A DNA stretch of 64,000 nt from a virus. The stretch is from the IMG/VR virus record IMGVR_UViG_3300028045_000007, positions 64,001-128,000 of that record. One strand, 5' to 3'. The notes under the pieces are model-generated. The model did no database searches and had not been told where the DNA came from. It worked only from the letters and a program-made list of their open reading frames with translations. The translations under genes and the position numbers were made by a program. Within the stretch, counting starts at the first letter, position 1, and each line of letters begins with the position of its first letter. This document shows, piece by piece, positions 7,925 to 52,852 of the stretch.

Positions 7925-9433
7925 ATGAGTGACGTACTATCAGAAGTTCCGGATCCGCCGCTGGCAACCGTTGAAGTATATTATAACGGTTATAAGCTGA
8001 CGCCAGCACCGCTTATCGACTGGACTGTAGAATCACAGTTTGATGATGGAGGTGTACGAACAGCGGACCTCAACCGAATTGTCTTAACGGGCACTGTTCT
8101 TATTACTCCTACTGGCAGCTACGAACAAATGTTTGAGAAGCAAACAGAGCTTCGTAATTTGTTTGCTACAGACAATGGAGACTTCGCAGTTCTTGCCGGT
8201 CCTGGCAATGCGACCCTCGGTGAAGGCGTTGTGATTTGCTCTGGTTTACAGCCAAGAGTAACGAGCGTCAATGTTCCTGCTGACACACAGTTTACACGTA
8301 TCGATTACACTGTCGAGCTTGAGGATGCTGTCGCTGCCAGTGGCGTGAGTGGCGTTATTTCAAGCCTGAGTGATCAATGGTCATTCCGTGAGGATGCCGA
8401 GACTTGTACCGTCCAGGTAACGCACCAAGTGAATGCTGCTGGTATCGACAGCGAAGCAGACAAATTCGATCAGGCGTTTCGTGCGGTACGAGATCGTTTA
8501 GGTATTCATAAACTACCTATTCAAATTCCATACTTTGTTCAACCGAATGCCTCTGGTCTATTTGGCATTACTCATCCATCAAATCCTGCCGGTGGACCAA
8601 TATATGAGGTATCAGTTAGACGAGAAGAGGTGGCAGATGTACCAAATGGCACGTATCAAGCTACAGAGATTTTCGTTCTTGTTAGCGGTGTGCCATACTA
8701 CTTCACGCAGCGTACCGAAGCATATTCAGAGGACGCCAATGGTATAGCCACGGTGACGTTAGCGGGCTCTGTACAGGGGTTAGGTAGAACGATTACGATT
8801 GATGAAGCCCGTGGGGGCGATGGCTTTAGTCGTGCTTCTACCGGCTTTGTAGATACCATTAAACCTCAACTGCCGTGGGACGCTTCTGGCGTATATCAAA
8901 AATTCAAGGATGGTGCTGTTTCTAGTGGCCTTGCGATCTTTGCTCCAACATCGTTCTCGCTCACAGAGAATAGGTGTCAAGGAGTCATTGATTTTTCAGT
9001 TACGTATACGGACGATCCAACCTCACATCTGCCGAGCGGTATTGCCACTAGTTCTTGTGGCGTCTCGATAGTCAATGGCATTCGTCTGTACGCTAGCCAC
9101 GTGATTCCATTGAGGCGTATCGGCAATATTGTACAAGACGTTGGCACAACAACAGAGGGTACGGTTTCAATCCAGTGTCAAGCACAGGCAAAGAACACTG
9201 GTAGTTCTAGCGTTGACACCAATCGTGTCATTCAGTACGTACAAGACGAGATCAACCGACTAAAGGGTATCTATGCCAATTCTGTAAACTACTTGGATCT
9301 ACGTATTTCGAACTTTACGGAACAGTTTAGCGAGAGAGACCGTACCAGCCAAGCCTCCCTTGAATACACGTTCGTGACAGACTTGGCAAGCGTACCAAGC
9401 GTGGATTCTGACATCGCACTGAGGACGCTATAA
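7925..9433 (+). CDS. virion structural protein (distal tail/hub-like by position)
   Basis: 502 aa beta-rich, directly after the tape measure gene. Confidence 0.6.
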   Translation: MSDVLSEVPDPPLATVEVYYNGYKLTPAPLIDWTVESQFDDGGVRTADLNRIVLTGTVLITPTGSYEQMFEKQTELRNLFATDNGDFAVLAGPGNATLGEGVVICSGLQPRVTSVNVPADTQFTRIDYTVELEDAVAASGVSGVISSLSDQWSFREDAETCTVQVTHQVNAAGIDSEADKFDQAFRAVRDRLGIHKLPIQIPYFVQPNASGLFGITHPSNPAGGPIYEVSVRREEVADVPNGTYQATEIFVLVSGVPYYFTQRTEAYSEDANGIATVTLAGSVQGLGRTITIDEARGGDGFSRASTGFVDTIKPQLPWDASGVYQKFKDGAVSSGLAIFAPTSFSLTENRCQGVIDFSVTYTDDPTSHLPSGIATSSCGVSIVNGIRLYASHVIPLRRIGNIVQDVGTTTEGTVSIQCQAQAKNTGSSSVDTNRVIQYVQDEINRLKGIYANSVNYLDLRISNFTEQFSERDRTSQASLEYTFVTDLASVPSVDSDIALRTL

Positions 9434-9993
9434 TGGTTCAGTTCCCTGAAATACAGTGGATTCAGCAAGATCCAACAATCGACCCATCTGGGTTCCGTGA
9501 TGCGGCCAGCGTACCCGCTGGTTTCTTGAAGGTGCTAAGTACCAGTGCCGGTGGCGTGCTCGACTATGGTCAGCTCAACACAACCGGCTCCGGTGCCATC
9601 ACTACAACCTATCTAGCGTATGCTCGTATCAGCGACATTGCAGATGCCAGCGGCGTATTCAATATGCGTTTGTTCCTAACCAACACTGATGCCTGGGGTG
9701 CTGGCACCTTCCGTTTCCTAGAACAGAAACAATTGCACTTTGTTCCTAGTGTTTCTCTTGACTCCTCGGCAGCAAACACACCAACGGTAGTGCCTGTGTC
9801 TACTAACTTCCTGGGTACGATTAGCGAGCCAGCTTGGCCAGATGGCCAGCCGTGGATGAGTGGTATCCTAGACAACGACGCTAGTCAGTACGTGTACTGT
9901 GCTATTGAGGTTGGCGTTGATGTGCCAGTTGGTACATACGGAGGAGCCGGTGCTGGCACATTCCGATACAGACTACTATACGACTTCTCATGA
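9433..9993 (+). CDS. virion structural protein (paralog of 10824..11477)
   Basis: G/S/T-rich beta protein; C-terminus aligns by eye with 10824..11477. Confidence 0.6.
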   Translation: MVQFPEIQWIQQDPTIDPSGFRDAASVPAGFLKVLSTSAGGVLDYGQLNTTGSGAITTTYLAYARISDIADASGVFNMRLFLTNTDAWGAGTFRFLEQKQLHFVPSVSLDSSAANTPTVVPVSTNFLGTISEPAWPDGQPWMSGILDNDASQYVYCAIEVGVDVPVGTYGGAGAGTFRYRLLYDFS

Positions 9994-10619
9994 GCGATCT
10001 CGGTCCCCAGTATAACGAGAGGTCGATTCTCGCTAAGTTTTTCAACCATCAAAGACATGGCTTTTTGATAGAGGTGGGTGCCGCTGATGGTATCACACAT
10101 TCGCATACCGCGTTTATGTTTGACGAGTGGGAATGGCGTGGCGTGTTGATTGAACCACATCCAGAATTTTTCTCTGCACTACAGGCACGTTACGAAAACA
10201 ATCCAGATGTACTAACGCTCAACGGAGGCATTCGTGAAGTTCCGGGCAAGCACAGATTCTACATGAATGGGCAAATCTCTCGTTTTCTAGATGATCAAAA
10301 GATAGGTGAGGGATTTAGTAAGGTCCCCGGGTACGAGGGCCGTATAGATGTAGAGTGTACTACACTGACAGACGTGTGTGAATCATTAGGAGTACCTCGG
10401 GAGTTTGATTTCCTTACTGTAGATGCTGAGGAGACAGACATAGAGGTCTTGAGCACGCTAGACTGGGAGCGTTGGCAACCACGCTTGGTATGTATTGAGC
10501 ACAGCATGCCATTACCTGTCATGAATGGATTTTTCAGTGAAAGGTCGTATGTGCAGCTTGAAAGAAACACCGGCAACACATTCTTTCATCGTATTGAAGC
10601 GAAGGTGGAAGACTTATGA
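9990..10619 (+). CDS. FkbM-family SAM methyltransferase
   Basis: FLIEVGAADG, GVLIEP, DFLTVDAEETD...VL, PRLVCIE motifs. Confidence 0.85.
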   Translation: MSDLGPQYNERSILAKFFNHQRHGFLIEVGAADGITHSHTAFMFDEWEWRGVLIEPHPEFFSALQARYENNPDVLTLNGGIREVPGKHRFYMNGQISRFLDDQKIGEGFSKVPGYEGRIDVECTTLTDVCESLGVPREFDFLTVDAEETDIEVLSTLDWERWQPRLVCIEHSMPLPVMNGFFSERSYVQLERNTGNTFFHRIEAKVEDL

Positions 10620-10804
10620 ATACTGACCACGAAAACATTGAGCTACGCAAGATCGGCGAGCCCGAGCCTGACTCTCTACCCAGGGGTATCAAGCTCATAA
10701 TAGTAGATAGGCACACGGTCTTTGTACGTCGTGTTCTTGGACGTTTCATACCGGTAACAGAATCAGAACAGGAGGAGCTTCACAGGAAGCATATTGTATC
10801 ATGA
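10616..10804 (+). CDS. small hypothetical protein
   Basis: 62 aa, ATGA coupling. Confidence 0.5.
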   Translation: MNTDHENIELRKIGEPEPDSLPRGIKLIIVDRHTVFVRRVLGRFIPVTESEQEELHRKHIVS

Positions 10805-10823
10805 ATCAACTGGAGCTATTACA

Positions 10824-11477
10824 ATGCCTGCTGGCGACTTCCCCATAGTACGTATCTTTGAGTGGGATACAACAGAGGTAGCGTCCCCGGTCGGTGACCG
10901 TACGACGCCCGGGGGAACGTTTGCCTTCAAACAAATGGTATCGCTGGGCTGTGCGAGTGCTGACCCTCTTGACCCGGCAACATCCGGAACGCTGGTATTC
11001 CCTGGTACGCAGTTTGACCACACGTCATCGCCCTATGCTTCAGAGTTAGCGTCAACGCCCGTAGCCATCACATTCAATATCGCAGTGAGCGGTACGGCTA
11101 TTTCTGACATTAAACTATATCTCATAGATGATTCTGCTTTTCAAGCGAGTGTAGACGAGGGGCTCGATAGAGCCTTCATGCAGTATGCTCCTAGCGGATC
11201 AATTTGGAAATCGAACTTCACACTACCGTCTGGGTCTATAGAGCGTATTCCCACTACAGTACCAAGCGTACAAAACATCAGGCGTCAAGATGGTTCTAAC
11301 GCACTCGTTGGTACTGATGACACCAATTCGTCCGAATTCGTATATCTGAATATTGTGGTGCCTCTTGGGGCACCCCTGGGGACATTTGGAGTGTGTGGTT
11401 CTGGGTTATTGAGGCTTGGATTAGTTTTTAATTTTTGGAACAACGATTTTATTCTGGAGTTTGGAGATGTCGGATAA
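10824..11477 (+). CDS. virion structural protein (paralog of 9433..9993)
   Basis: GGAG RBS before ATG 10824; shared motifs with 9433..9993. Confidence 0.6.
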   Translation: MPAGDFPIVRIFEWDTTEVASPVGDRTTPGGTFAFKQMVSLGCASADPLDPATSGTLVFPGTQFDHTSSPYASELASTPVAITFNIAVSGTAISDIKLYLIDDSAFQASVDEGLDRAFMQYAPSGSIWKSNFTLPSGSIERIPTTVPSVQNIRRQDGSNALVGTDDTNSSEFVYLNIVVPLGAPLGTFGVCGSGLLRLGLVFNFWNNDFILEFGDVG

Positions 11478-12000
11478 AACCTGTACTAAGTGTCAAACCT
11501 CTAAAATATATGACGACTTCCACAGGGATCGCACCCGTAAAGATGGATACTTTCCCCAATGTAAGACATGCACGAGGCTTTATCGTCAAAGTGAACACGG
11601 GGCAAGGTTACACCGAGAAGGAAACCTACGTTTTCAACAAACACCAAAAGGTAAAGCGTGTCTTCGTAGGGCACAAAGCAAGTATCAACAGTCACCTAAA
11701 GGCAGACTGATGTATCAACAGGCGGCCAGACGACGATTAGCACGTATTGCTGATGCTGACATGTCGCTTACCGATGATGACATACGCCGTGTTCACGAGA
11801 AGTTTAATCATAAATGCTTCAATTGCGGCAATACAGAACGTCTAGAGATTGATCACCATTATCCTTTGTCTATGGGATTTGGCCTTACTGAAGACAACGC
11901 AGTGCTGTTGTGTAGGTCTTGCAATGCGTCCAAAGGAAACAGGATGCCAGAGGATTTTTACCCCGAAGAGAAACTTAGAGTGCTGGTTAGTGTAATATAA
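11467..12000 (+). CDS. free-standing HNH homing endonuclease
   Basis: N-terminal CTKC...CKTC; C-terminal CFNC...LEIDHHYP...N...LCRSCNASK HNH motif. Confidence 0.9.
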   Translation: MSDKTCTKCQTSKIYDDFHRDRTRKDGYFPQCKTCTRLYRQSEHGARLHREGNLRFQQTPKGKACLRRAQSKYQQSPKGRLMYQQAARRRLARIADADMSLTDDDIRRVHEKFNHKCFNCGNTERLEIDHHYPLSMGFGLTEDNAVLLCRSCNASKGNRMPEDFYPEEKLRVLVSVI

Positions 12001-12003
12001 CGT
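11987..12003 (+). promoter_or_regulatory. putative phage late promoter TTAGTGTAATATAACGT
   Basis: 16/17 identical to 23158..23174; both precede untranslated leaders. Confidence 0.55.
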
Positions 12004-12052
12004 GAGACCTATTAGGTCTTTCGAACGTTCGATAACCGTTAGGAGGTAAGCT

Positions 12053-12238
12053 ATGGCAACTTTCAATGCAGCTAGTAGCACCAATAACGCCAACTCTGTC
12101 CTGTACAGCTACAGCACCCGCATGGTATGGCACACTGACCGCAAGGTTTCAGGTGCGGCCCGTGGAGCTGAAGTTCAGTCTGTTGACAACCTGGGCGTAG
12201 GTGTTGCAACTGGTGATCCGTTCACCAACATGACCTAA
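12053..12238 (+). CDS. small protein, probably highly expressed/virion
   Basis: AGGAGG RBS; upstream promoter-like motif and downstream hairpin. Confidence 0.7.
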   Translation: MATFNAASSTNNANSVLYSYSTRMVWHTDRKVSGAARGAEVQSVDNLGVGVATGDPFTNMT

Positions 12239-12259
12239 GTAAAACTAGGTTGATAATCC

Positions 12260-12292
12260 AAGGCCGGGGGTTCCTATGGAACCCCCGGCCTT
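12260..12292 (+). terminator. perfect 15-bp GC-rich hairpin (terminator or processing site)
   Basis: AAGGCCGGGGGTTCC-TAT-GGAACCCCCGGCCTT; weak U tract. Confidence 0.7.
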
Positions 12293-12303
12293 AGTGTATT
12301 TAT

Positions 12304-12807
12304 ATGCGAGGCGTAGCCGAGTGGTTTAGTCTCCGGAGCAAGGATATGGTTAAAGCTACCTTTGAACACGAGGGCAATTCTGGCCTTCTAGCGATCGTTA
12401 CACACTTCGGTCGCACAGTCGAGATCCAATGCGAGAAGCAAACGGACGAGAGTTTTCGTATGGGTGGAACGGCTGTCAACGAAGTTGTTGTATATGAGGG
12501 ACTCATCATGAAGTTCCCCACGCAGTTCCGAGCTTTCCGTACTCCAGACGACTATTTCGAGGAAACCGGCATCCTGTCAGACGAAGAATGGACAGAGGCC
12601 AACCGTCATTGCTATGTCACTGAGTACTACTCAATCGACATGGAAGGTAAGAGACCTGGCTGGTTCATCAGTCACGAGCCCATCAAAGACGCGAACTACT
12701 TGTTTGTGAATCTGGACGTGTTAGATGGCGGTGGTAACGTTATCAAGAGATATCGTGTCTCTCCTTTTACGGGCGAGTATAGAGTAATGGAGTACATAAA
12801 TGGCTGA
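12304..12807 (+). CDS. hypothetical protein
   Basis: 167 aa; no SD, preceded by TTAGTGTATTTAT. Confidence 0.6.
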   Translation: MRGVAEWFSLRSKDMVKATFEHEGNSGLLAIVTHFGRTVEIQCEKQTDESFRMGGTAVNEVVVYEGLIMKFPTQFRAFRTPDDYFEETGILSDEEWTEANRHCYVTEYYSIDMEGKRPGWFISHEPIKDANYLFVNLDVLDGGGNVIKRYRVSPFTGEYRVMEYING

Positions 12808-15800
12808 CTTGATCAATGATGGTTCGTTGGTAGGTTTCTGGCCCCTACTAGAGCCAAGTGGAGCGTTTGTTTACAAGAATTACTCACCCGCGTATGGTAA
12901 GCACCCGAGTGGTATTTCGTTTGATATGCACGTTGCCGTTGCAGACCTTCAATACGATGAAGAGCATAGTTCATATTGGCCCGGTGGTACAGAATTTACC
13001 AATATTTCGTCTGGCAACTTGATACGCGGGTATTGCGTCCAGGGACACTGGAAACTAAAAAGCACTGGATCTCCGCCACTGTCTAAATATTTGACGCTTG
13101 GGTGTGGGGGTAAAACACAAGTACAGCAATGTCTGGCTCCCGCAGTTGCCCAGAGCGGCTTTACTGTTGGTGCTTGGCTGTACCCAAACTCTCAGGGATT
13201 TTTGGAGGCATATACTGAGTCTGCCAGCATTGGCAGTGCGGCTAATGATTGGAATACAATGAACGCTCGTGCCCACACTATGTTGGGGCAGTTCAGAGCA
13301 TATACCGGCAATTCCGGTTGGCTGATGGGTATTTCTGGTAATCCAGCTCGTAGCACTCAGTTCAATTTTGAACCCGAAGCTGGCGATACTTTGCAGGCGT
13401 TTGTTTCTATGGAGAAGGCAAATGCTGCGGTGAGTACTGGGTTTTTGGAGACCCCCATTGAATCCGGTTGCTATACGCATATTGCTTTTAGTTATCGCTA
13501 TGTAGATGGCACCAACAATGAGATCGTACTATATAAAAATGGTCGTGTCACCGCCAGTGGAACCACCACTGACGATTTGACGTTGGATAATACCAATCTA
13601 ACGGGTGCTAGCAATCATCGCCCCTTTGCTATTGGTGCCACCGATTCAGAAACCGCAACGAACTACACTCCGTATTATTACAGGACTGGTGGATGGGGCA
13701 ATCTCATGTCTGGTGTCTACTATTTCCGTCGCGTGTTGCATGAAGGGGAGCTGCAAGAAATGCATGAACGTGGCGGACTTGTCGCCCATGATTCTGCTCT
13801 TGCACCCTCACAAGAAGTACTTCTCTCCGATCCAGACCTAGTAGCGTACCACACATTTACAGAGCCGGGCTTCGGTGACATTTCTAACAATCATAGTCCA
13901 CTCGTAGGCGTTCATGATATGGGCTATAGGGGGGCAGGAAAGCTACAAGTACCCGGTCCATATGGCGAAGGTATGACATATGGCGATGGAGCAAGTACCT
14001 ATGGATATTTGGCCGCTTCTAGTGGCACATGTCTTGATGCACTAAGTCAAGGTAGTTGGACCATTAGTTTTCTTGTAGCTCCACCTCACGCAGCCAGTCG
14101 CAGCAATAACATATTTTGTTCATGGGGCTCTGTTACAACCTCAACGTCGGCGACCGCCATGCCAGCGGCTACACCTCTCACGAATCCAACTGCTGGACTT
14201 TGTTTCAGTGTTAGTGGTGTTGCCACTAGGCAGGTTTGCATCATTGAAGTTTATTCGACTGGCGATGTTGAAGATACGGACAATATTTTAGTCTTTAGTT
14301 TAGATAGCACATTGGACTATTTCCATGGTGCCTGTACACATATTGCTCTTGCTTATGACGACAGCACCAAGGGCATTGCCGCGTATGCTGATGGCGTACA
14401 GTGCGGAAGTGGTACCTTTACGAACTCCCTCACCGATCAACTATTGTCAGTGACCAGCAAGGGCTTTCCACTTATGTGGACCAATGGCATAAAAGACGAT
14501 TTGACCACCAGCTATCGCGGCGTACATGCGACCAGTTTTCAAGACGGTGACTTGGGGTCGATTGTTGTTTGTAAGCGAGCACTGTTGCCAGCGGAGATAC
14601 GCGGCATTGCACTTAGCGGCATCAATTACACAAGTCTATATCGCACACGCCATGATCCTCGCATAGTTGGGTATTGGCCAGCAAGCGACTTTAATATTGA
14701 TGATATTTTAGTAGAAGACGAAGCACGTTGTTGGGGTGAACTAGACGGTCACTTGGTACGTGGTGACAGTGATCCCCGTAACGATCAATGGTATTTGTTC
14801 AATCGTCAAAATGATGGTACCGTGCGATACAATCAGTTTGGTAGCCGTGATTTGCCGCCCGAACTAGCAAGCTACGGTAATCTTGGTATAACGTCTGGTA
14901 CATTTTCTCCACGCGGTGCCGGGGGAGGCACAGTAAATCTTGCTGACGCCGTAGACAATCGATCATCTATTACTAACTTGACTTCAAGATATAAGCCATA
15001 TTTTGAAGAAAGCGATGACATGCCACAAAATGTTGGTGCTGATTATTTGTTGTCATACGAAGTCACTCCGAGTGGAGATATTCCCAAGACACTTGGTGCT
15101 TATGCTAGTACTCTTACTGCACCAATGCATAACTCTCTCTTGCATGAGTATGCTTATGATGGTAACAAAGATCAACGTTCATTCTTAACAACCGAGCTTG
15201 CAGAGCAGGGGTCTGGCGTAACATTGGTGTGGGTTGGATATTCGGACGTGCCGCTAGTATCTGGCAATCTCGCATATGGAGTACCCAGTCGTGTAGTACT
15301 CCATACACGATTCACATTACCTCAAAACGTTGATGGATTTTCTGCTGGTACCACACCTCTCGATATCAGTTTATGGATCAATGGCGAACTGATACAGCGT
15401 CGCCCCTCAACTTCAATCGATGCTAAGATATGGAGCGACCAAGCCCCTGATGGTTCTGCCGATGCAGACATATTGCATTTTGGTGGCATTGCTGGCAAAC
15501 CATCCTATATTTCTTTGTATACCACGTCTGATTCTGGACTAGGAGAAATCTATCTTCGTAACATGTTCATTATGAAGGGGATCTTCTTAAGCGGCGAGGT
15601 TGAAGCTTTAGCAGCTAGTGGCATTCAATCCCCCGCGATTGGTGGATTTACAGATTCTCAGTCAAAAACCCAAGTAACAATTGCTGACTCGAATTTAGTC
15701 GGATACTATAGATTCAATGGATTCGCGGGTGGTGGATCTGGCACGACAGACTTAAGTTCCAATGGTAATCATTTGTTTGGAGCCCAACAAAGCCTCGTTG

Positions 15801-17749
15801 AAAACGGTGAAGGAACATTGAGTCGGGGTGCATTCGATTTACATGTCTTCCCTGGGCCTCGCGAGTCGTCCGATCTTGGGGTGCAGTGCAGTGGTTTTAC
15901 ATATGCAAGCCAAGAGCCGCCCGCTACTGCTGGTGGTCTCATGCCTCCCTTTATGATGTCTGGTGTTCGTTTCGAAAAACCACGAGAAGATTTTTCTATT
16001 GGTTTCTTGTATATCAAAAAGAATGCGACCGCTACTGAATTTGATACTATTATTGCTTATGGCATGGTCCCGGCTGCCATAACTGACGAAACCAACGACA
16101 ATGATAGAGGTTGGGCGATTGGTATGGACTCCAGTGACAACATGCGACTAGTGATGTCGCTTGCACATACAGATGATGGTACCGGCGAAGGTAGTATGTA
16201 TCTCAATACTACTAGTAGACCGATATGTTCCGGCCAAACACTCTGTGGTATGTTCGAAGCTGCCCAATGGTATGATGACGAACGCGATTTTGATCGATAT
16301 CGCCATGGTACACAACGTGTACCGAGACCAGATTTTTGGAGTCATTATTGCTGGACGTATAGTGCGGCCGCAAAAAAACTATCGTGTTATGTGAATGGGG
16401 CTTTGGTTGATCAGAAAGTGCTGAGTTATGGCATATATCCACAAACTCCCAATGATCCAAAAGCTAGGTATCTCACAATGTACCAACACACGCGAGACCC
16501 TTGGGTACAGGGTGATGATATAACTAATGATCACGAAGGCTCCATGACCGATCTTTGTTATTTCGACAAGACACTAACACAAGAAGAGATTAGATACATC
16601 GCATTGAACGGCATCGACAGTGCCGTTGGCACCCCCGTGAGCGGACTAACTGGCGGCTATGTTCGCGGACAAGATACTGGTTCTGGCCTTATGGGTGGTA
16701 TGTCACGAGGAGTTGGACCTGTTTCCGGATTGTTTGGTGGATATATGCCGGGCGGTGCAGTGGCAAGCGGTTTGTTCGGTGGCTTTGTATCTGGCGTTGT
16801 CTTTGGTGATGGCACCATCGGTGGCTTCGTGCGTGGCCTAGACACCGTTTCTGGTATTGTTGCCGGTTATATTCGTGGCGTTGATGTTGGCTCCGGAATG
16901 ATCGCTGGCTACATTCGTGGCCAGGAAGTTGGTTCCGGACTATTTGGTGGCCTTGTTCTCGGTGCCCAACCCGTCAGTGGCCTGTTTGGTGGCTTTATTA
17001 GGGCGGCAGACGTAGGTAGCGGACTACTCGGCGGGTTTATGCTTGGTGGTCTAGCTGGTAACATGCATTTTGATGCTGGATTTAATCTTAGTGTATTGGC
17101 TGCGGAAGATTTTGATGCACGGCTTGAGGTTGCCAAAACAATGTCAGCCGACTTTGATGCCAAGCTTATTATCTTCCAAAATGAGCAGCCTCCCCTTGTA
17201 GAGATTCTGATTCCTGGCACGACCGTGACGGGCTTGTCAGGACCATTCAATCAGTATTTGATTGGTAGTGCGTCCGGACAACAGGGCAAGGCTATCACAC
17301 AAACCAAGTGGCATTTTGGAGATTTCTCGCCACCCGAAAGCGTTAGCGTTAGTGGCATTAGTTACTATCCGATACAGCATAATTTCGTTAACGATGGCTA
17401 TTATATTGTGCGATTTGAAGCCATAGATTCTGATGGGCTGCACGCTTCAGCGACAAGGATTTTAAACGCTACAAATGGTGCTGACCCAGTAGTCATTAGT
17501 ATGTCTGGCGTACCACGTTCTGGTAATGCGGGATTAGAGGTGGACTTTGTTACTAACGTCGATATTCTACCACCGAGCGTTACTATTTTGTCACAACTGT
17601 TGCATTTTGACGACGGACAAACTACAATGGCTTTCCATCCAACGCACGTGTACACCGAACCAGGAACATACAAACCGATTTGGTGTGTACGGGATTCACG
17701 AGGTATGATTTGGTGCGATAGCCTTGAGGCGGGCAGTGATGTCCTTTAG
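12800..17749 (+). CDS. large virion protein: four LamG/concanavalin-A-like modules, Gly-rich 14-aa repeats, C-terminal PKD-like domains
   Basis: Modules begin LVGFWPL / LVAYHTF / IVGYWP / LVGYYRF; LamG-like THIAFSY..LYKNG, SHYCWTY..CYVNG; PKD-like WHFGD and HFDDG..HVYTEPGTY. Confidence 0.75.
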   Translation: MADLINDGSLVGFWPLLEPSGAFVYKNYSPAYGKHPSGISFDMHVAVADLQYDEEHSSYWPGGTEFTNISSGNLIRGYCVQGHWKLKSTGSPPLSKYLTLGCGGKTQVQQCLAPAVAQSGFTVGAWLYPNSQGFLEAYTESASIGSAANDWNTMNARAHTMLGQFRAYTGNSGWLMGISGNPARSTQFNFEPEAGDTLQAFVSMEKANAAVSTGFLETPIESGCYTHIAFSYRYVDGTNNEIVLYKNGRVTASGTTTDDLTLDNTNLTGASNHRPFAIGATDSETATNYTPYYYRTGGWGNLMSGVYYFRRVLHEGELQEMHERGGLVAHDSALAPSQEVLLSDPDLVAYHTFTEPGFGDISNNHSPLVGVHDMGYRGAGKLQVPGPYGEGMTYGDGASTYGYLAASSGTCLDALSQGSWTISFLVAPPHAASRSNNIFCSWGSVTTSTSATAMPAATPLTNPTAGLCFSVSGVATRQVCIIEVYSTGDVEDTDNILVFSLDSTLDYFHGACTHIALAYDDSTKGIAAYADGVQCGSGTFTNSLTDQLLSVTSKGFPLMWTNGIKDDLTTSYRGVHATSFQDGDLGSIVVCKRALLPAEIRGIALSGINYTSLYRTRHDPRIVGYWPASDFNIDDILVEDEARCWGELDGHLVRGDSDPRNDQWYLFNRQNDGTVRYNQFGSRDLPPELASYGNLGITSGTFSPRGAGGGTVNLADAVDNRSSITNLTSRYKPYFEESDDMPQNVGADYLLSYEVTPSGDIPKTLGAYASTLTAPMHNSLLHEYAYDGNKDQRSFLTTELAEQGSGVTLVWVGYSDVPLVSGNLAYGVPSRVVLHTRFTLPQNVDGFSAGTTPLDISLWINGELIQRRPSTSIDAKIWSDQAPDGSADADILHFGGIAGKPSYISLYTTSDSGLGEIYLRNMFIMKGIFLSGEVEALAASGIQSPAIGGFTDSQSKTQVTIADSNLVGYYRFNGFAGGGSGTTDLSSNGNHLFGAQQSLVENGEGTLSRGAFDLHVFPGPRESSDLGVQCSGFTYASQEPPATAGGLMPPFMMSGVRFEKPREDFSIGFLYIKKNATATEFDTIIAYGMVPAAITDETNDNDRGWAIGMDSSDNMRLVMSLAHTDDGTGEGSMYLNTTSRPICSGQTLCGMFEAAQWYDDERDFDRYRHGTQRVPRPDFWSHYCWTYSAAAKKLSCYVNGALVDQKVLSYGIYPQTPNDPKARYLTMYQHTRDPWVQGDDITNDHEGSMTDLCYFDKTLTQEEIRYIALNGIDSAVGTPVSGLTGGYVRGQDTGSGLMGGMSRGVGPVSGLFGGYMPGGAVASGLFGGFVSGVVFGDGTIGGFVRGLDTVSGIVAGYIRGVDVGSGMIAGYIRGQEVGSGLFGGLVLGAQPVSGLFGGFIRAADVGSGLLGGFMLGGLAGNMHFDAGFNLSVLAAEDFDARLEVAKTMSADFDAKLIIFQNEQPPLVEILIPGTTVTGLSGPFNQYLIGSASGQQGKAITQTKWHFGDFSPPESVSVSGISYYPIQHNFVNDGYYIVRFEAIDSDGLHASATRILNATNGADPVVISMSGVPRSGNAGLEVDFVTNVDILPPSVTILSQLLHFDDGQTTMAFHPTHVYTEPGTYKPIWCVRDSRGMIWCDSLEAGSDVL
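16628..17047 (+). repeat. ten tandem 14-aa (42-bp) coding repeats xxxxSG-hydrophobic-x-GG-aromatic-xxG
   Basis: GTPVSGLTGGYVRG, QDTGSGLMGGMSRG, VGPVSGLFGGYMPG ... ADVGSGLLGGFMLG. Confidence 0.85.
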
Positions 17750-17758
17750 GAGTAAGTC

Positions 17759-20700
17759 ATGAGTATCATTGTATCAGACGGCATTGTTGTTAGTGGCGTA
17801 GGAGTACCTCTAAATGGTATTCCGTGGCCATCAGGTCAGTTTGACTACAGGGAACCGGGCTCACAACTGAGTGCGTTCTTGTCGTCGGTCAATGCAACGT
17901 TTGGGTTTGGCATGACGCCACACTCATGTCAGACCGAATGGGTGCCATATGGTAATGCCGGTGACTTTCACGGGGCCTCTGGTCAGTTAGCCAATATTGG
18001 AAGCCCCCTTGAAATATTTGTTGGGGATTTCTTCTTTCGTGGAAAAATTACGCATTCAGACTATACTAGTAGTGCTGGCGGCACAGTGGTCAGCGTTACC
18101 ATCGAAGACGACAGACGAACGCTCCGTAAAGCGAAGATCCACACCGAAGACCTTGGCGAAGACGCACCTAGCGGCGTGATTTCTGTAGCACGTGCATATC
18201 GTCTACTGAATGGACTACTAGATGTTGATGGCGACCCGAATGATGTCAATATTAAGGAGTATAGACGCATCCTTCAGTACGGTGGTACATACAGTCAAAT
18301 CCTTGCAGCCATTGATTATCATTTCATCGAGGGGCTGTGTGCCGTATCAGTATATGAGTTGCCGACCGTTGAGCAGCTTGAAACCAATATTGGGGGCACA
18401 ATTGAGTCGATCCGTTTTCAGTTCAATCTAACCAATCTTGATGAGGCACTGTCTCGCATCCTACTAGACACTGGCTATGACTGGTACTGGAATATGGATG
18501 CCCAACACGTTAATCTCATCAATAAGAAAGCCACGTTTGACATTACTGAGGCGGCCATCCTTGATCTTGTGTCCGAGTTTGGCAGTGCTAGTGGACTCAA
18601 CGAGACTAAGCAATTAGGGTACGGACAGGACGTTGTTCCGGACCCCACACGATTCCGAGTTCTCGGCGGACACCAAGAGGGGTTTGTCAACTCTCATATT
18701 TTAAGTCCCATTGATGGTATTGACACATTTGGTTTAGATGGATACGCTAGTAGGACTGTCAAAGATTCTGATGTACAAATTGTATTCACGCCCGCATGGT
18801 CTAATTTAACTGTTGGCTTTTTTGACAACGGCGGCTATTATCGTACGTATATCCCCACAGAGAAGGAACTTCAATTAGCGTTAGCCGGTATTGAACAGTG
18901 GACTTATTTTAAGGTCTATCAAACCTCGTCTCTCGGTGCTGATCCTGCTGGATATGGCTTACCAAGCGACGCGGGACACGTTGCAGCACAGCATGCTACA
19001 TTCCAGAGTCGTCTTGATCCGGTTATGCCCCTGGCTGCTATGGGGGCCGGTAGCGAGTCTTCTGGTATTCGCATTATTAGCAACCGTCGCGACGAAGACC
19101 AGAACTGGGTGCTTAACTTCTACAGTCGTATTCGTGATCATGCAACACGTCACTATGGTCGTTCATACGTGGCGGAAAACCTACTGTTTACTGAGGCGTC
19201 TGGCCTCTTTAGACTTGTTAGTGCTGCGTGGGCCAACATCGAGAATCAAGTTGATGGGCACGCCCTGTCGGCATCTGGCGTCTCTGGTTCTGGCGTTTAC
19301 ATTGACGACTATACGATTAATCGAGATCTTGGACCTATCAGTCCATTTATTTCGGATGACTTTCGTGTTCAAGCCCACTGTCGTATGCCAGCCGGTACGG
19401 TGTATGGCCCACAGGGAGACAGTAATCCAGCGAGCTTTGGCAATTGGACCGAAGATGCTCCTCCATTCAACCCAACGGGCGATGGCGATCATTATATTCC
19501 GGTGCAACTTACCATTGTTGGTAATCGTGTTATCAACCCCCGCAGTAACGAATTATACTCTTTTGAGGCATATCCCGAGGGAACCATCTGGTGTCAGCTA
19601 CCTATTAATGCTGGACCATCTGACGGCATGGTAAATGATAATGTCATCTCTCAACTGTCAACTTTGGTTTCTACTAATATCAAGCTGGATTCCGAGGGTC
19701 TAACAGATATCATTAATCCGGCCAGAGTATTGAATGTTTACAATTCGCTGTCTGGCGTAGCTATTCCCGTTGAGGCACGTAGTCGTTATGGACAGTCATA
19801 TCCGAATCAGTGGGTGCTTGGAGACATGCACTATGAACGGGACGAGGACATTCAGTTAGACGACCAGTTTGTACCGTGGGCATTCTCTCCGGTTGGCAAC
19901 CAGTCATCTCTACAGATTATGGCCGACAGGGCCGTGCGTCGCGTTGAGGGTAAAATTGTCCCGAAAAGCTCGTCGCGATATGCAGACTTCCAGCAAGTTG
20001 GTTTGCCTCTACTGTCATTTGATGCGTTTGCACAACAGGACATTGGTCCGTCTGGTCTTTATGGTGAGATCAGTCATGGTGTTAGTGAACTGAATATTTC
20101 ATTTGGTGCCGAAGGCTTTACTAGTCGCTATAAGATTCAATCTTACTTCCCCAAGTTTGGTCGCGAAGCACCGCTTGGTGAGCGTGTGCGTGCTGTCGTG
20201 AATGGAATCTTGAATCCAATTGACTTCACTGATCTTTCGCTTTTGGATCCTAATCCTGGTGGTCCAACCAATCCAATGTTGCCTGGAGATCCCTATGTAC
20301 CGCCGCTGTTCTTCGATAGCGAAGAGCGAGCGGTACGTGTTACGATCACAGAGACTAACAATGTGTTTACACTCGATAGTACGCCGGGCGACGAAGAGGA
20401 CGAACGATACCGAGGCATAGATAGACATGGCTATACAAAGCCACCCCGTTATTTTGGTTCGACTAAGCCAGATTTTGCTGATGGTGCAATCTGTATTGAT
20501 GGTTTCTTAAACATCACCGACGAAGCCATGTATCATACGGATGAGTTCCGTCTTCCTGGTGGCAATACTGTTTTAAGATACTTTACTGAAGGGCGTCCTT
20601 TTGGCAATGGTACTATTGTAGAGGTTGAGCGTGCGAACGTGGCCGATCCCACAACATATGATGTCACTATTGTTGATCCAACGGCACTGGCGGGTGGTAC

Positions 20701-21124
20701 CGAACGTGCCGTATTTGGCGTTGAAGTACTCAATGGTTCTGTGACCCTGGGTGACAAGACGACATTGGCGGTTCAGGGAGACGCACCCGTATCTCCCGGT
20801 GCAAATGATGGGACTATTTTTATTAATGGCACCATTAATGATACTGCCGGTGTAATTCCGGTTGAAATTATCAACGTAGGGTTGCTAGGAACGGAAGATG
20901 CCGTTGCTACGTGCAGACTACTTGATTATGCTGGAAATATTTTACCAGACGCTTCCGGCGTTCATTACCACAGTGTTGTACCGCTCCCCTTTAGGCAATT
21001 TGCTGCTCCTGGTGATCGTGGATATCTTGCTACGTTAGCGGTGCCGAGTGGTGAATATGGACAAACCGCAATGGTTAGCTTTATAGAGATTGTGAAGCCT
21101 GCACTCTTCAGATATAACGGATAA
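17759..21124 (+). CDS. large virion protein (baseplate hub/central tail-like by position)
   Basis: 1121 aa, AGGAG RBS, in the structural operon. Confidence 0.6.
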   Translation: MSIIVSDGIVVSGVGVPLNGIPWPSGQFDYREPGSQLSAFLSSVNATFGFGMTPHSCQTEWVPYGNAGDFHGASGQLANIGSPLEIFVGDFFFRGKITHSDYTSSAGGTVVSVTIEDDRRTLRKAKIHTEDLGEDAPSGVISVARAYRLLNGLLDVDGDPNDVNIKEYRRILQYGGTYSQILAAIDYHFIEGLCAVSVYELPTVEQLETNIGGTIESIRFQFNLTNLDEALSRILLDTGYDWYWNMDAQHVNLINKKATFDITEAAILDLVSEFGSASGLNETKQLGYGQDVVPDPTRFRVLGGHQEGFVNSHILSPIDGIDTFGLDGYASRTVKDSDVQIVFTPAWSNLTVGFFDNGGYYRTYIPTEKELQLALAGIEQWTYFKVYQTSSLGADPAGYGLPSDAGHVAAQHATFQSRLDPVMPLAAMGAGSESSGIRIISNRRDEDQNWVLNFYSRIRDHATRHYGRSYVAENLLFTEASGLFRLVSAAWANIENQVDGHALSASGVSGSGVYIDDYTINRDLGPISPFISDDFRVQAHCRMPAGTVYGPQGDSNPASFGNWTEDAPPFNPTGDGDHYIPVQLTIVGNRVINPRSNELYSFEAYPEGTIWCQLPINAGPSDGMVNDNVISQLSTLVSTNIKLDSEGLTDIINPARVLNVYNSLSGVAIPVEARSRYGQSYPNQWVLGDMHYERDEDIQLDDQFVPWAFSPVGNQSSLQIMADRAVRRVEGKIVPKSSSRYADFQQVGLPLLSFDAFAQQDIGPSGLYGEISHGVSELNISFGAEGFTSRYKIQSYFPKFGREAPLGERVRAVVNGILNPIDFTDLSLLDPNPGGPTNPMLPGDPYVPPLFFDSEERAVRVTITETNNVFTLDSTPGDEEDERYRGIDRHGYTKPPRYFGSTKPDFADGAICIDGFLNITDEAMYHTDEFRLPGGNTVLRYFTEGRPFGNGTIVEVERANVADPTTYDVTIVDPTALAGGTERAVFGVEVLNGSVTLGDKTTLAVQGDAPVSPGANDGTIFINGTINDTAGVIPVEIINVGLLGTEDAVATCRLLDYAGNILPDASGVHYHSVVPLPFRQFAAPGDRGYLATLAVPSGEYGQTAMVSFIEIVKPALFRYNG

Positions 21125-21127
21125 AAT

Positions 21128-23161
21128 ATGGTAATGCAATCTGGTATTCCGCCCTTCGATTATGCATATGGCAATGGCCCCTTTAGCGTCGCGGACGCTT
21201 ATGGTGGTGGAGGTTGTGTACTTGGTCCATCTGGTGCATTATTAGAACAGGCACAGTTTGCACTGATCGCCGAGCGTCGTAGGTGGACGGGTGAAAACAC
21301 TTATGTGCGTCCTTATTTATATCCGTTTCATCTATATACACATATGGATATTACGCCCTCTGGTCCGTACGAACCGAAGGCAGATGGGTCAACACTAGGT
21401 AACTCTTTAAACCCCGGTGCTTTTATATTTGTTGATTACTTTTATGAACTTCGTGGTGCCATGGACGAGTTGTTTGGTGATATGGCAGACGATTCTGACT
21501 ACCCTTCAGAAACGTTGCGGGCGTCGTGGTTACAGGCGTTGTATCCGCATAGTCCAAGTGGATTTTATGACGCACCAGAGGGTGGAGGCGATTATGGCAA
21601 TTATCTTCATCGTATCCCATCAGAGGGTGGCGAGATAGCAATGTCGCCAGATGTCCTTGGTTCATCCGGTGTACTCTATGACATTGACTTTGGCGAGGTA
21701 ATGTTTAATCCATACCCACAAATTGGGCACTACATCAATACTTCGGCACATGGGCCGGGCGATGGTGCAAATGCAGCATTTTACATTACGGCTTCGCCGT
21801 TTTTTCCAGCGTTTCAAAAAACGAATGGCGATTTAGTTGATGTCACTGCCAATGATCCCGTAGCTGTAACATCACTGTGTGATACGACACAGACGGCTCT
21901 TGGGCGTGTGCGTCTAGATGGTTATATGCTTACTAGTGACTCGGAATACTATCTAGGCAAGAAGAGTCAAGTACATGATCGTGTACAGGATTTTACTTAC
22001 CATAGTGCTGGTATTCGACAAATTGGTAGTTCAATTGAAGACATGCCGTTTAGTCGTGTGTTTTTAACGCCCACCGCACAGGCATCTGGCGTGTATACTA
22101 TTGCCGTACGTAACCCACATGGTGTCGTTGCAAACACCACGATTGAATCTGGCATTGTGAGTAACTGGCCACCCGAACGACTAGCGTGGCCCGCACATAA
22201 TTATGAAAACGATTCCACACTTGCATTCAATGCTGGTTACGAAGTTTTTAATGATGCAATCTGGATGACAGATCAGTCACCCGAATGTTCGTCATGGCCA
22301 CACTCGGCAACATATGCTTCTGGTTTAGCTATTATGTCACCATATACTGGTCATAAGATGTGGGTGCGTCACGCCGAACTTGTTAATGATCATAAAGGTC
22401 ACAATTGGCCGACACAGATAGGTTTAGAAAGAATCAGTAATGACAATATCATTCGTGTTTCTCCCGAACGAGAAGCATTGGGCACTGGCGATTGGGACAT
22501 TAAAGTACATTTTTTACAGTATGATGACCAATTGAATTTTCTTTCTGAAATATCTTCGGATGCATTTGGATCTTTTACCACGCACAATATTACGTTTGTA
22601 GACATGTTTTATGATGGCTCTTACTTATATTGTACTAATAGCCTTTCTCAAGGTGCCGATATTTATAAGTTTGACGACACTACATTTACCTATGTTGACA
22701 AATATTCTGTTTCTGTTGACGATGTTCTAGGATTAACGGATTTACGTGGTTGTCACACCACTGTCGGTAACTATTTTTATTCTGGAACCTCTGGCGTATC
22801 AACACCAATGTCACAGAGTGGTATTTACCCTTGGTGGATCGATAGTCACAGTGCTGATCCGTCAGCTCAGGAACACGGCGTTATTGGCATTGGTGCCATG
22901 AAGAACATTGACGGTTCCTCCATTGTAGGTTATAAAAAATACGCAAACATCAAAGATATGTTTGAAGTAACGGGGGGTACACATATACAAAATGGTATAT
23001 ATGTATTCATGCAATGGAACAATAGCACAACCGACGTAAAACTTTATCTATTACGTATTGTAGAAAAAACTGATTACTGGGAGGTAGTGGCGACGTATTA
23101 TATCGACAATGATCTCAATACGTACTATCTTCAGTATGAAGGACTGCATATGGACATTTAG
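21128..23161 (+). CDS. virion structural protein (possible beta-propeller C-terminus)
   Basis: 677 aa, aromatic/beta-rich. Confidence 0.55.
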   Translation: MVMQSGIPPFDYAYGNGPFSVADAYGGGGCVLGPSGALLEQAQFALIAERRRWTGENTYVRPYLYPFHLYTHMDITPSGPYEPKADGSTLGNSLNPGAFIFVDYFYELRGAMDELFGDMADDSDYPSETLRASWLQALYPHSPSGFYDAPEGGGDYGNYLHRIPSEGGEIAMSPDVLGSSGVLYDIDFGEVMFNPYPQIGHYINTSAHGPGDGANAAFYITASPFFPAFQKTNGDLVDVTANDPVAVTSLCDTTQTALGRVRLDGYMLTSDSEYYLGKKSQVHDRVQDFTYHSAGIRQIGSSIEDMPFSRVFLTPTAQASGVYTIAVRNPHGVVANTTIESGIVSNWPPERLAWPAHNYENDSTLAFNAGYEVFNDAIWMTDQSPECSSWPHSATYASGLAIMSPYTGHKMWVRHAELVNDHKGHNWPTQIGLERISNDNIIRVSPEREALGTGDWDIKVHFLQYDDQLNFLSEISSDAFGSFTTHNITFVDMFYDGSYLYCTNSLSQGADIYKFDDTTFTYVDKYSVSVDDVLGLTDLRGCHTTVGNYFYSGTSGVSTPMSQSGIYPWWIDSHSADPSAQEHGVIGIGAMKNIDGSSIVGYKKYANIKDMFEVTGGTHIQNGIYVFMQWNNSTTDVKLYLLRIVEKTDYWEVVATYYIDNDLNTYYLQYEGLHMDI

Positions 23162-23174
23162 TGTAATTTAACGT
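23158..23174 (+). promoter_or_regulatory. putative phage late promoter TTAGTGTAATTTAACGT
   Basis: near-identical to 11987..12003. Confidence 0.55.
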
Positions 23175-23253
23175 AGACATTGGTATATATCATAGTTAAG
23201 TCTTAAGGCGTATTCTTGCGGGATAGCGACTTTTCGATTCAGGAGTTACAATA

Positions 23254-23931
23254 ATGGTATCAGGAATTAGATTTTTAGCTTGCTCTGGAGCATTAGGCAA
23301 CACTGTTGCGTCTTTGTATGGCAACGGGATGTCGTCTATCGGCCTGGAGATATTTGCTTTGGAGGTTGGTGCTGATGGCTCGCCAAACCGCATGGGCTTT
23401 TTCGGTGCTGCCGGTGCCCCAAACAGTGCCGTAATTGTTGGACAACACCAAGATCGTACGCATTGCACCAATGCTGCGGGTGCAGATCTCGGCCAGATGA
23501 TTAATGCGAAATACACTGGTGCTTCCACTGTAGAGCATTCTGGCGTACCGTTTACTGCTGGCTTTGCTGCAATTCCCAGAGAGTCTGGTACGCTATTATG
23601 TCGCTTTAAGGATCCAAATGATGGGGCGGTGATTACACAGTCGGCTTCATTCCGTGCCGTTAACTTTACCGCTGCGTCGGGCGTGCCCGACATTAGTGAT
23701 CTTGCAACTGACATTACTGTCTATGCCGTCCAGTTGCAGGATACAAGCGGTAACGCAGCCGATAGTACGTGGACCGAGATTTCAAGCGGAGGTTCGGCAC
23801 CAGGACTTAGCCTTGCTGATCAGTCGCTTGAGTCAAACATTCACGATTTCCACCTATTGGTTAGTGGTGCCCCTGCTATTGCTGGTCGTAAAACTAACTT
23901 CGGCTACTGGATACAACTAGAGTTCCTGTAA
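23254..23931 (+). CDS. virion structural protein
   Basis: AGGAG RBS; G/A/S-rich; own promoter motif and terminator. Confidence 0.6.
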   Translation: MVSGIRFLACSGALGNTVASLYGNGMSSIGLEIFALEVGADGSPNRMGFFGAAGAPNSAVIVGQHQDRTHCTNAAGADLGQMINAKYTGASTVEHSGVPFTAGFAAIPRESGTLLCRFKDPNDGAVITQSASFRAVNFTAASGVPDISDLATDITVYAVQLQDTSGNAADSTWTEISSGGSAPGLSLADQSLESNIHDFHLLVSGAPAIAGRKTNFGYWIQLEFL

Positions 23932-35175: not shown

Positions 35176-35826
35176 ATGCTTGATCATGCAGAGACCATTT
35201 TGGATAATTATGGTCCACTCATCAAGAAGATTGCTAGGTCGGCTTGCTTCTCGTCTGCTACTATTGACATATTGGATTTGATTCAGGTTGGCGAGATCGC
35301 CGCACTGAGGGCAGTTAAGAAATATGATCCCTCGGCTGGTGCCACGATACGTTCATATGTAGCACGCTTGGTACGTCAAGATATTTATCGTGAGGCTGCC
35401 AGATTCCTTGGTGTGTTTACCGTGGATCCTCGCGTGACTAGCCTTGCAGCAAAAGCTAATCGCATGTCTCTAGATGGACACAGTGATGAAAGTATCGCTA
35501 CGGCTCTTGACGAGTCAAGTAGTTATGCACTGGACGCAGATCATGTACGAGATCTTCGGCTCGCGTACAGTCGTCGCCAGTACGTGGTTACCCAGGATGA
35601 CGATGCACTAGATGAGTCTGATGCAGATCAACACACCATTAAAGAACTACTAATAGAGATTGTACAGGATGAGCCGGATAAGATTATTCTAGACAATCGA
35701 ATCCTTGGCACCTCTTCGGTACGTGACATTGCACGCCTACTCTCGGTGTCGCCGCGACGAGTTTATGAGTTGGAAAACGATCTCAAGGATCGTATCAAAC
35801 ATGCAATCAAAGGGATGACTGAATGA
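35176..35826 (+). CDS. phage sigma-70-family factor
   Basis: Region 2 DLIQVG.IAALRAVKKYDPSAG..IRSY; C-terminal HTH SVRDIARLLSVSPRRV. Confidence 0.8.
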   Translation: MLDHAETILDNYGPLIKKIARSACFSSATIDILDLIQVGEIAALRAVKKYDPSAGATIRSYVARLVRQDIYREAARFLGVFTVDPRVTSLAAKANRMSLDGHSDESIATALDESSSYALDADHVRDLRLAYSRRQYVVTQDDDALDESDADQHTIKELLIEIVQDEPDKIILDNRILGTSSVRDIARLLSVSPRRVYELENDLKDRIKHAIKGMTE

Positions 35827-39929: not shown

Positions 39930-40258
39930 GACTACGTCATAAACTTGCGGCATTGCTCACTAGATGGGCACTCTGTCTTGATCCCACCAACGCTACTATA
40001 CGTCGTGCGGCACTTGAAGCACTCGACGCTCGTAATCTCGCACAAGAGAAGGAATTTAGCGATGGCTTTTCTCAGATCGATTGGGTCAAGAGAGACATCG
40101 AGGGTGGCAGGGAGGATTGTGATCACATGAACGTTCTGTGTGAGGTTCACGACATAGAAGATCGCCCATATCGTGTGTGTAGCCGATGCAGGGCTCGTGT
40201 ATATATTCCACGTGCAGAACACAAAAGAGGACTTATTCCGTTTGACGGCACAAAATGA
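39926..40258 (+). CDS. hypothetical protein
   Basis: ATGA-coupled; CDH...CSRC. Confidence 0.5.
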   Translation: MRLRHKLAALLTRWALCLDPTNATIRRAALEALDARNLAQEKEFSDGFSQIDWVKRDIEGGREDCDHMNVLCEVHDIEDRPYRVCSRCRARVYIPRAEHKRGLIPFDGTK

Positions 40259-40689
40259 ATTACACATACAAATACCCCCGCTACGACATCACGTGTGATA
40301 TTGCGTGTGTCGTTTGGAACTTTTACTCCAAACAGGCAACAGAGCTTCTACTGATTAAGCGTGGAGTTGAGCCTGACAAGGGCAAATGGGCGTTGCCGGG
40401 AGGACACCTTGATCCTGATGAACTCTTGATCGAGTGTGCCGCACGCGAACTACAAGAAGAAACGGGGCTAGTTGCTGATCTGCAACCTGTTCGTAACTTT
40501 GACACTATAGATAGGTCTCCAAACGACCGATGTATCTGTTGTCTTTTCATGGCAAAGTTTGACATCAGTAGACCAGAGGTGGTAGCGGGTGACGATGCCG
40601 TAGATTACAAGTGGATCAAGGCGGGAGACCTAGACGATATTGACTTTGCATTCGACTGCAAGGAAATGGCTAAGACTATACTACTATGA
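40255..40689 (+). CDS. Nudix hydrolase (ADP-ribose pyrophosphatase-like)
   Basis: WALPGG...E....AARELQEETG Nudix box; AGDDA, AFD. Confidence 0.9.
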   Translation: MNYTYKYPRYDITCDIACVVWNFYSKQATELLLIKRGVEPDKGKWALPGGHLDPDELLIECAARELQEETGLVADLQPVRNFDTIDRSPNDRCICCLFMAKFDISRPEVVAGDDAVDYKWIKAGDLDDIDFAFDCKEMAKTILL

Positions 40690-49734: not shown

Positions 49735-49736
49735 CA

Positions 49737-52837: not shown

Positions 52838-52852
52838 GAAAACAATAGCGTA

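Follow-up and report, generated by a model that had tools for sequence, protein, structure and literature searches.

Why should a block of phage tail proteins with almost no detectable similarity to each other be rich in one and the same dipeptide, Ser-Gly (SG)? The question is raised by a stretch of 64,000 nucleotides (the window), which constitutes bases 64001-128000 of the 154,408-bp virus record IMGVR_UViG_3300028045_000007 from an uncultured phage. The open reading frames (ORFs) between positions 7925 and 23931 of the window encode proteins with a marked excess of SG, and an island of glycan genes, including genes for glycosyltransferases (GTs), is found at 35.8-56 kb. The reading that we favour, and to which we give a probability of about 0.5, is that a GT of the phage may O-glycosylate the Ser residues of these dipeptides in the tail proteins.

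A nucleotide search of the record against 50,697 GenBank phage records gave no match, and neither did nucleotide and protein searches of the GenBank phages with the tail proteins and with the 603-residue GT described below. The tail proteins matched no PHROG family, and PHROG and Pfam scans returned nothing for most of them. Nearly all window genes are located on the + strand, and the terminase, the portal, and the major capsid protein (MCP) are encoded upstream of the tail block, the MCP being assigned from weak matches to a PHROG family and to phage G. The tape measure protein (TMP; 2738..7921, + strand, 1727 residues) was recognized by its PHROG tape-measure matches. Because the ORFs between 7925 and 23931 are positioned after the TMP gene, we take them to encode tail-tip, baseplate, and fibre proteins.

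For quantification of the SG excess the expected number of each dipeptide was derived from the composition of each protein itself by composition-preserving shuffles. Five proteins, all encoded on the + strand, were pooled: the 502-residue protein directly after TMP (7925..9433), the 1649-residue fibre- or adhesin-like protein (12800..17749), the 1121-residue tail protein (17759..21124), the fast-evolving 677-residue tail or fibre protein (21128..23161), and the 225-residue β-sandwich-like tail protein (23254..23931). Together they contain 80 SG where 38.5 are expected (ratio 2.08, z 6.7), while the reversed Gly-Ser (GS) is found 37 times against the same expectation of 38.5. SG had the highest z of all 400 dipeptides, the next one reaching z 3.5 on 3 counts, and the remainder of the genome showed 240 SG against 215 expected. 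Expressed differently, 22% of the Ser residues in the five proteins are followed by Gly, compared to 8% elsewhere. In the order given above the proteins contain 8, 39, 14, 11, and 8 SG and 3, 19, 7, 6, and 2 GS. The initial annotation had reached exactly these numbers by hand, and its counts for two internal comparisons were likewise exact: TMP, an internal virion protein that served as negative control, has 8 SG and 9 GS (11.6 SG expected), and DnaE (1102 residues) has a single SG. Our own count for DnaE adds 6 GS. The excess on which that annotation had built its proposal therefore survives composition correction.

The dipeptide is part of a larger motif. Val, Leu, Ile, or Phe follows 61% of the SG dipeptides but only 23% of other Gly residues, and Ala, Pro, or Val precedes 51% of them compared to 21% of other Ser residues. 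Accordingly, SG[VLIF] is found 54 times against 10.5 expected (z 14), and [APVG]SG[VLIFT] 40 times against 4.2 (z 18), in good agreement with the context of small residues before and hydrophobic residues or Thr after SG that had been noticed by eye. Acidic residues are not enriched around SG. Thr-Gly (TG) is depleted in the tail proteins (ratio 0.65), and the ratio for TG[VLIF] is 0.6-1.0 within the phage's own clade.

Two neighbouring genes share the SG excess. The 186-residue tail protein (9433..9993, + strand) has 4 SG, all of which are conserved, and its homologues contain 103 SG where 30.9 are expected. The 227-residue tail protein (10794..11477, + strand), a distant paralogue of it (E 1e-9), has 5 SG. 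Apart from this pair we detected no mutual similarity among the seven SG-rich tail proteins, and a shared paralogous domain as the cause of the excess was rejected on that ground.

Conservation was analyzed in 29 related IMG/VR loci with 41-77% identity to the 1121-residue protein, where a column pair was counted as conserved when present in at least 80% of the homologues and a column as rare when present in less than 20% of the sequences. The SG excess is clade-wide (27 related contigs), and for the tail proteins after TMP a ratio of 2.1-3.3 is kept in all homologues, compared to 0.44 for TMP and 1.45 for RecA. The homologues of the 1649-residue protein total 863 SG against 402 expected (387 GS), and 32 of its 39 SG are conserved in at least 80% of them. 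For the 1121-residue protein, 27 homologues gave 469 SG against 226 expected, with 14 conserved SG sites in the family. The 502-residue protein, which has SG at residues 106, 139, 142, 210, 254, 321, 334, and 371, belongs to a family with 10 conserved SG sites whose members carry 9-12 SG each, where 3-4 are expected.

The Ser residue itself is the object of this conservation. Across the tail proteins Ser conservation is 0.70-0.92 within SG and 0.20-0.52 for other Ser residues (0.92 and 0.42, respectively, in the 502-residue family), and the contrast persists in the 677-residue family, where the homologues are only 25-42% identical, with 30% identity overall, and the values are 0.70 and 0.20. 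The RecA protein of the same phages shows no such contrast. Thr is the commonest substitute at other Ser residues but is rare at SG. Among conserved column pairs we found 74 SG compared to 6 GS, 4 TG, 8 Ala-Gly, 8 Asn-Gly (NG), and 6 Asp-Gly (DG), and a conserved Gly follows 75 of the 139 conserved Ser residues (54%), where random placement predicts 9. In the seven tail proteins selection thus favours Ser, and not Thr, Asp, or Asn, before Gly-hydrophobic at a large number of fixed positions. The window phage itself has one of the rare swaps to Thr at a conserved SG site: residues 62-64 of the 502-residue protein (window 8108-8116) read Pro-Thr-Gly and the remainder of the family has Pro-Ser-Gly.

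Could the excess be an artefact of composition, of a tandem repeat, or of a DNA or RNA motif such as TCTGGY? We regard this as hardly credible, although there is something to be said for it. TCT-GGY accounts for 33 of the 80 codon pairs at SG. Ser is encoded there by codons with a pyrimidine in the third position, TCA and TCG being avoided, and GGG is avoided for Gly. Furthermore, ten SG reside in one tandem repeat, located at 16640..17060 (+ strand) and corresponding to residues 1281-1407 of the 1649-residue protein, where approximately ten Gly-rich units of 14 residues with the rough consensus x-V-S-G-L-F-G-G-F-x-R-G-x-D are placed between the Laminin_G_3 and PKD domains that Pfam identifies in this protein. 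A search of the PDB with the sequence of its C-terminal third gave no match. SG is periodic in the repeat and irregularly spaced everywhere else, and when the 10 SG of the repeat are set aside the remaining 29 of the protein still compare with 14 expected, so that inflation by the tandem repeat as sole cause was rejected. Composition fares no better, as the shuffles that preserve it still leave z values from 6.7 to 18. A DNA-level cause, whether TCTGGY or codon pairs, was also rejected: the NNT|GGN preference is found genome-wide for Ser, Thr, and Ala codons, and both families of Ser codons, TCN and AGY, are represented among the homologues at 34 of the 74 conserved SG sites. Since the change between TCN and AGY requires two base changes, Ser itself must have been kept, and selection acts at the protein level. 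The codon-context bias is a property of the genome in its own right, in which T-ending codons are favoured and A- or G-ending ones avoided directly before GGN, alike for Ser, Thr, and Ala.

Which virion proteins carry conserved SG was analyzed in three-genome alignments of the window phage and two deeply diverged relatives. SG is identical in all three at 17 of the 48 conserved Ser residues of the tail block, and three-genome-identical SG is also found in a 341-residue and a 472-residue protein encoded upstream. None was found in MCP, portal, DnaE, DnaB, RecA, or two of the three core GTs, and the terminase and the 419-residue core GT have one each. MCP contains 1 SG against 1.2 expected and no conserved SG. 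Conserved SG is thus confined to tail and tail-tube-like proteins, to the exclusion of capsid, portal, TMP, and enzymes. The glycan-coated virion that the initial annotation had envisaged is consequently too broad, with MCP, portal, and TMP showing no excess, and should be narrowed to the tail. The 341-residue virion protein (L034:16964-17989; genome 60964-61989), located upstream of the window, has 6 SG where 1.3 are expected, and 5 of them are identical in the two deeply diverged relatives. A language model points to it as possibly a tail terminator or tube-associated protein, and for the 341- and 472-residue proteins alike a tube- or terminator-like nature is such a lead only.

The excess is not a generic property of tail fibres. 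As controls we used 27 annotated tail, baseplate, and fibre proteins from T4, lambda, T5, SPP1, and P2 (14,202 residues), which gave ratios of 1.14 for SG, 1.05 for GS, and 1.01 for SG[VLIF], and six whole genomes devoid of the GT pair described below (KVP40, SPO1, S-PM2, T4, P-SSM2, and T5), in which the SG[VLIF] ratios for large Ser/Gly-rich proteins were 0.77-1.48. The explanation as a general fibre property was rejected on these grounds, and the excess that the initial annotation had attributed to the presence of GTs is indeed absent from the tail proteins of phages that lack these enzymes. In control families from T4, KVP40, S-PM2, and P-SSM2, moreover, a conserved Gly follows only 2 of 30 and 2 of 54 conserved Ser residues (4-7%).

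Four distant complete records with the GT pair (G006, G008, G009, and G014; GC content 33-38%) were analyzed as whole genomes, and their large virion proteins are enriched for SG[VLIF] with ratios of 2.5, 2.1, 2.3, and 1.9, respectively. In each of them the protein encoded directly after TMP is among the most enriched (observed/expected 47/20.8, 41/21.7, 34/16.7, and 39/20.1), and BLAST revealed no similarity between these proteins and the window tail proteins. With respect to SG[VLIF], all eight GT-positive genomes rank above all six GT-negative genomes.

The enzymes that could read such a motif are encoded in the glycan island, which contains at least 10 ORFs with GT domains at 35.8-51.2 kb according to Pfam. 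Its first gene encodes a GT4-type GT of 603 residues (35823..37634, + strand) with a CxxC...CxxC insert and a C-terminal DUF4214 domain, followed by a GT4-type GT of 419 residues (37636..38895, + strand) that always adjoins it, and by a GT2-like protein of 345 residues (38892..39929, + strand), the third member of the core. The conserved GTs match the Pfam families Glycos_transf_1 and Glyco_trans_1_4, and searches of the PDB with the GT sequences gave weak generic GT4 matches only. The variable remainder of the island (40255..55951, + strand) encodes GT2, GT4, and CgeB-like GTs, S-adenosylmethionine-dependent methyltransferases, a Nudix protein, an IMPDH/GMPR-like enzyme, and a GDP-mannose 4,6-dehydratase with an epimerase/reductase.

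Of the island, the most distant relatives retain the first three genes alone, and the remainder is variable. The 603- and 419-residue GTs are conserved there (the latter in G001, G003, and G004), and so is the 345-residue protein, with 43% identity in G001 and 59% in G004, while G001 and G003, two distant relatives, lack counterparts of most genes of the 40255..55951 part. Genes for a GT2 and a GDP-mannose dehydratase were nevertheless present in all five distant relatives tested. At least 142 relatives of the 603-residue GT were found in IMG/VR, and its homologues are adjacent to those of the 419-residue GT in 10 of 10 distant records. No relative without the GT island was found among those checked. 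In the 603-residue GT the catalytic E-x7-E motif and four cysteines (Cys4; C301, C304, C329, and C332 in residues 301-332, arranged as CxxC-24-CxxC) are retained by 65-66 of 66 homologues with identities as low as 28%, and the insert is probably a metal finger. In G004 the homologue (L050:3612-6476) is interrupted by an intein-like insertion of approximately 350 residues placed exactly at the catalytic SIC|EGDGMP (E-x7-E) motif. The insertion is flanked by Cys...His-Asn|Cys and has a middle part that resembles a homing endonuclease.

The simplest reader of the motif to assume is an enzyme that modifies proteins, and the GT4 pair is the sole conserved candidate. The statistics point to selection for Ser-Gly-hydrophobic and are silent about the identity of the reader, and the GT pair is linked to the motif by co-occurrence alone. 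It is therefore conceivable that the Ser residues are modified by another enzyme or receive something other than a sugar, such as a phosphate, an acyl group, or another adduct, or that an assembly chaperone docks at the motif. We consider this group of explanations quite unlikely, as the Pfam scans revealed no kinase or acyltransferase among the ORFs scanned, and as the GT core is the only large conserved enzyme set able to act on proteins, in a phage that devotes approximately 20 kb to glycan synthesis. The FkbM-family methyltransferase encoded within the tail module (9990-10619, Pfam) could have been a further candidate, but no homologue was found in the 29 related loci or in seven whole relatives, and it was rejected as part of the system.

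In the mechanism that we propose, Ser-Gly-hydrophobic, in most cases with Ala, Pro, Val, or Gly in front, would serve as a recognition tag on tail-tip, baseplate, fibre, and tail-tube-like proteins, with the tagged Ser presented in a loop or at a β-strand edge. In the host cytoplasm, before or during assembly of the tail, a phage GT would O-glycosylate the tagged Ser. The best candidate for the reader of the tag is the pair of adjacent GT4 enzymes encoded at 35823-38895, and within it the larger, 603-residue GT with its invariant putative Cys4 finger. Extension and capping of the glycan would subsequently fall to the variable GTs, the methyltransferases, and the GDP-sugar enzymes. Modification of the Ser as such, its nature as a sugar, and the enzyme responsible are all inferred from the motif and its company. 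The earlier proposal of SG as the acceptor sequon of a phage GT thus gains from a directional and Ser-specific excess, from selection at the protein level, and from a GT core in every relative checked, while the modification itself keeps its conditional status. A more complete version of the proposal, which we put forward tentatively and at somewhat less than even odds, is that a lineage of large uncultured aquatic phages may use the Ser-specific sequon [A/P/V/G]-S-G-[V/L/I/F], read by a previously undescribed GT4 pair with a Cys4 finger, to place sugars at approximately 75 fixed sites on tail-tip, baseplate, fibre, and tail-tube proteins and not on the capsid.

Several observations weigh against glycosylation. 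It is proposed here from sequence alone, for a group of uncultured phages, and the 603-residue GT has no homologue in the 50,697 GenBank phage records. As no GT-less relative was found, the association between GTs and SG lacks a negative case inside the clade. Nor are the four distant records independent lineages: they share MCP, terminase, tube, TMP, replication genes, and the GT pair with the window phage, and all belong to one old supergroup. For plain SG, the GT-positive genomes exceed the cyanophages S-PM2 and P-SSM2 by a small margin. Alternatively, the GTs could modify the host surface or DNA. Finally, in rare columns SG (178) is not above GS (284), which means that the whole excess consists of old, fixed sites and that there is no sign of the site turnover of a glycan shield. 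Such fixed positions are equally expected from a structural motif, and the sequence [A/P]-S-G-hydrophobic agrees with a common type I turn that has a G1 bulge and precedes a strand.

The last two points lead to the main rival of glycosylation, in which the motif is purely structural, a lineage-specific tight turn or strand cap in β-rich tail proteins that receives no modification, with the GT island serving another purpose. Besides the confinement of the excess to ancient fixed sites, with none among rare ones, the rival can draw upon the location of SG mostly in loops and at strand edges, upon the order of Gly and then a hydrophobic residue, as commonly found where the chain returns to a strand, and upon the one block that is a genuine structural repeat (residues 1281-1407 of the 1649-residue protein). 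The location was analyzed in AlphaFold2 models whose low confidence, with a mean predicted local distance difference test (pLDDT) score of 66 for the 502-residue and 64 for the 225-residue protein, is a further reservation about glycosylation. Coil was predicted for 5 of 8 SG Ser residues in the former compared to 10 of 37 other Ser residues, and for 6 of 8 compared to 10 of 15 in the latter, and several SG are placed 1-3 residues ahead of a strand or in loops of low pLDDT. In these models the position of SG fits a turn or strand cap. Foldseek searches of the PDB with the 502-residue protein, the domains of which are weakly tail-tube- or Dit-like, returned tube, Dit, and baseplate proteins as weak matches only, with E values no better than 4e-3.

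Nevertheless we find a purely structural origin rather unlikely. Asp-Gly and Asn-Gly are the usual turn sequences, and turns normally tolerate Asp, Asn, Thr, and Gly, but among the conserved pairs Asp-Gly and Asn-Gly are approximately tenfold rarer than Ser-Gly (DG 6 and NG 8 against SG 74), and swaps to Thr are rare. In T4, lambda, T5, SPP1, and P2 the tail and baseplate proteins show no excess, and the 54% of conserved Ser residues followed by a conserved Gly in the present proteins stands against the 4-7% in T4-like families. Furthermore, the motif recurs in proteins that are dissimilar to each other and in non-homologous tail proteins of the distant relatives, and capsid, portal, and TMP are without it.

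Glycosylation of Ser by phage GTs as proposed above can be compared with systems that are already known. The initial annotation had drawn the analogy to eukaryotic proteoglycan O-xylosylation, which shares Ser-Gly as the acceptor dipeptide. Xylosyltransferase acceptor sites have acidic flanks, in contrast to the Ala, Pro, or Val before and Val, Leu, Ile, or Phe after the phage dipeptide, and Pfam scans of the island ORFs revealed no GT14-type (Branch) domain but only GT4, GT2, and Glyco_trans_1_2 families. This analogy was consequently abandoned. A parallel in gene arrangement is GtfA/GtfB, an adjacent GT4-fold pair that initiates cytoplasmic O-GlcNAcylation of Ser in serine-rich repeat adhesins, and the phage genes 35823-37634 and 37636-38895 likewise form an adjacent GT4-type pair, as they do in the 10 distant records. 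The substrates of GtfA/GtfB are low-complexity Ser-rich repeats, while the phage SG sites are isolated and irregularly spaced in proteins that appear folded, and Pfam reported no DUF1975 domain in the phage GTs.

The closest worked-out analogue is TibC/AAH, the bacterial autotransporter heptosyltransferases (BAHT; TibC/TibA and AAH/AIDA-I; eLife 2014, PMC4358343), soluble cytoplasmic enzymes of the GT-B fold that modify many Ser residues of a β-rich surface protein. They heptosylate Ser and not Thr, in loops of β-rich autotransporters, one mapped site in TibA reads N-S-G-G, and a Cys4 "iron finger" recognizes the substrate (PMC4358343). The 603-residue phage GT also has an invariant CxxC...CxxC insert (65-66 of 66 homologues), a putative metal finger that may take part in substrate recognition, and the phage sequence statistics would fit an enzyme that prefers Ser to Thr (TG ratio 0.65, Thr swaps rare at SG). 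The two systems differ in that the phage GTs match GT4-type Pfam families, with no heptosyltransferase family reported by Pfam, and in that the candidate substrates are several unrelated tail proteins instead of one β-helix with 19-residue repeats. The likeness is therefore one of analogy and not of homology, the catalytic families being different.

Among phages, O-glycosylation of virions by phage GTs has been described for mycobacteriophages (Freeman et al. 2023, Cell Host Microbe, as cited in PMC12619734), where, according to the same secondary account, the glycans are found at the C-termini of capsid and tail-tube subunits (PMC12619734). As far as that account goes, the common feature is the proposal that phage-encoded GTs act in the cytoplasm on virion proteins of the same phage. 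The difference is that in the present case approximately 75 internal fixed candidate sites reside in tail-tip and fibre proteins and the capsid is without excess. Our literature search did not turn up a defined sequon of this kind for phage virion glycosylation. Should glycosylation hold, O-glycosylation of phage virions would gain its first defined sequon, and TibC/AAH a counterpart that arose by convergence. A tag that is a sequon would allow candidate sugar sites on the tail proteins of uncultured phages to be read directly from their sequences, and would point to a testable enzyme family, the Cys4-finger GT4 pair, with no match in the 50,697 phage genomes. Host range, resistance to proteases, and the way in which defence or immune systems recognize the phage would all be affected by sugars on the host-recognition apparatus. 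A purely structural motif would still be unusual, with one dipeptide accounting for more than half of the conserved Ser residues across seven mostly unrelated tail proteins.

The tail module contains two further genes to be mentioned. An HNH endonuclease (11461-12000, Pfam) is found at the same place in just four related loci, and the 167-residue protein encoded at 12304 shows no SG excess in its homologues (ratio 0.49). As for TMP, giant ORFs that match it are present in three of the distant complete records, G008:C1:64580-85279 (approximately 6,900 residues), G014:C1:47422-70806 (approximately 7,800 residues), and G009:C1:42236-52813 (approximately 3,500 residues), which would imply extremely long tails.

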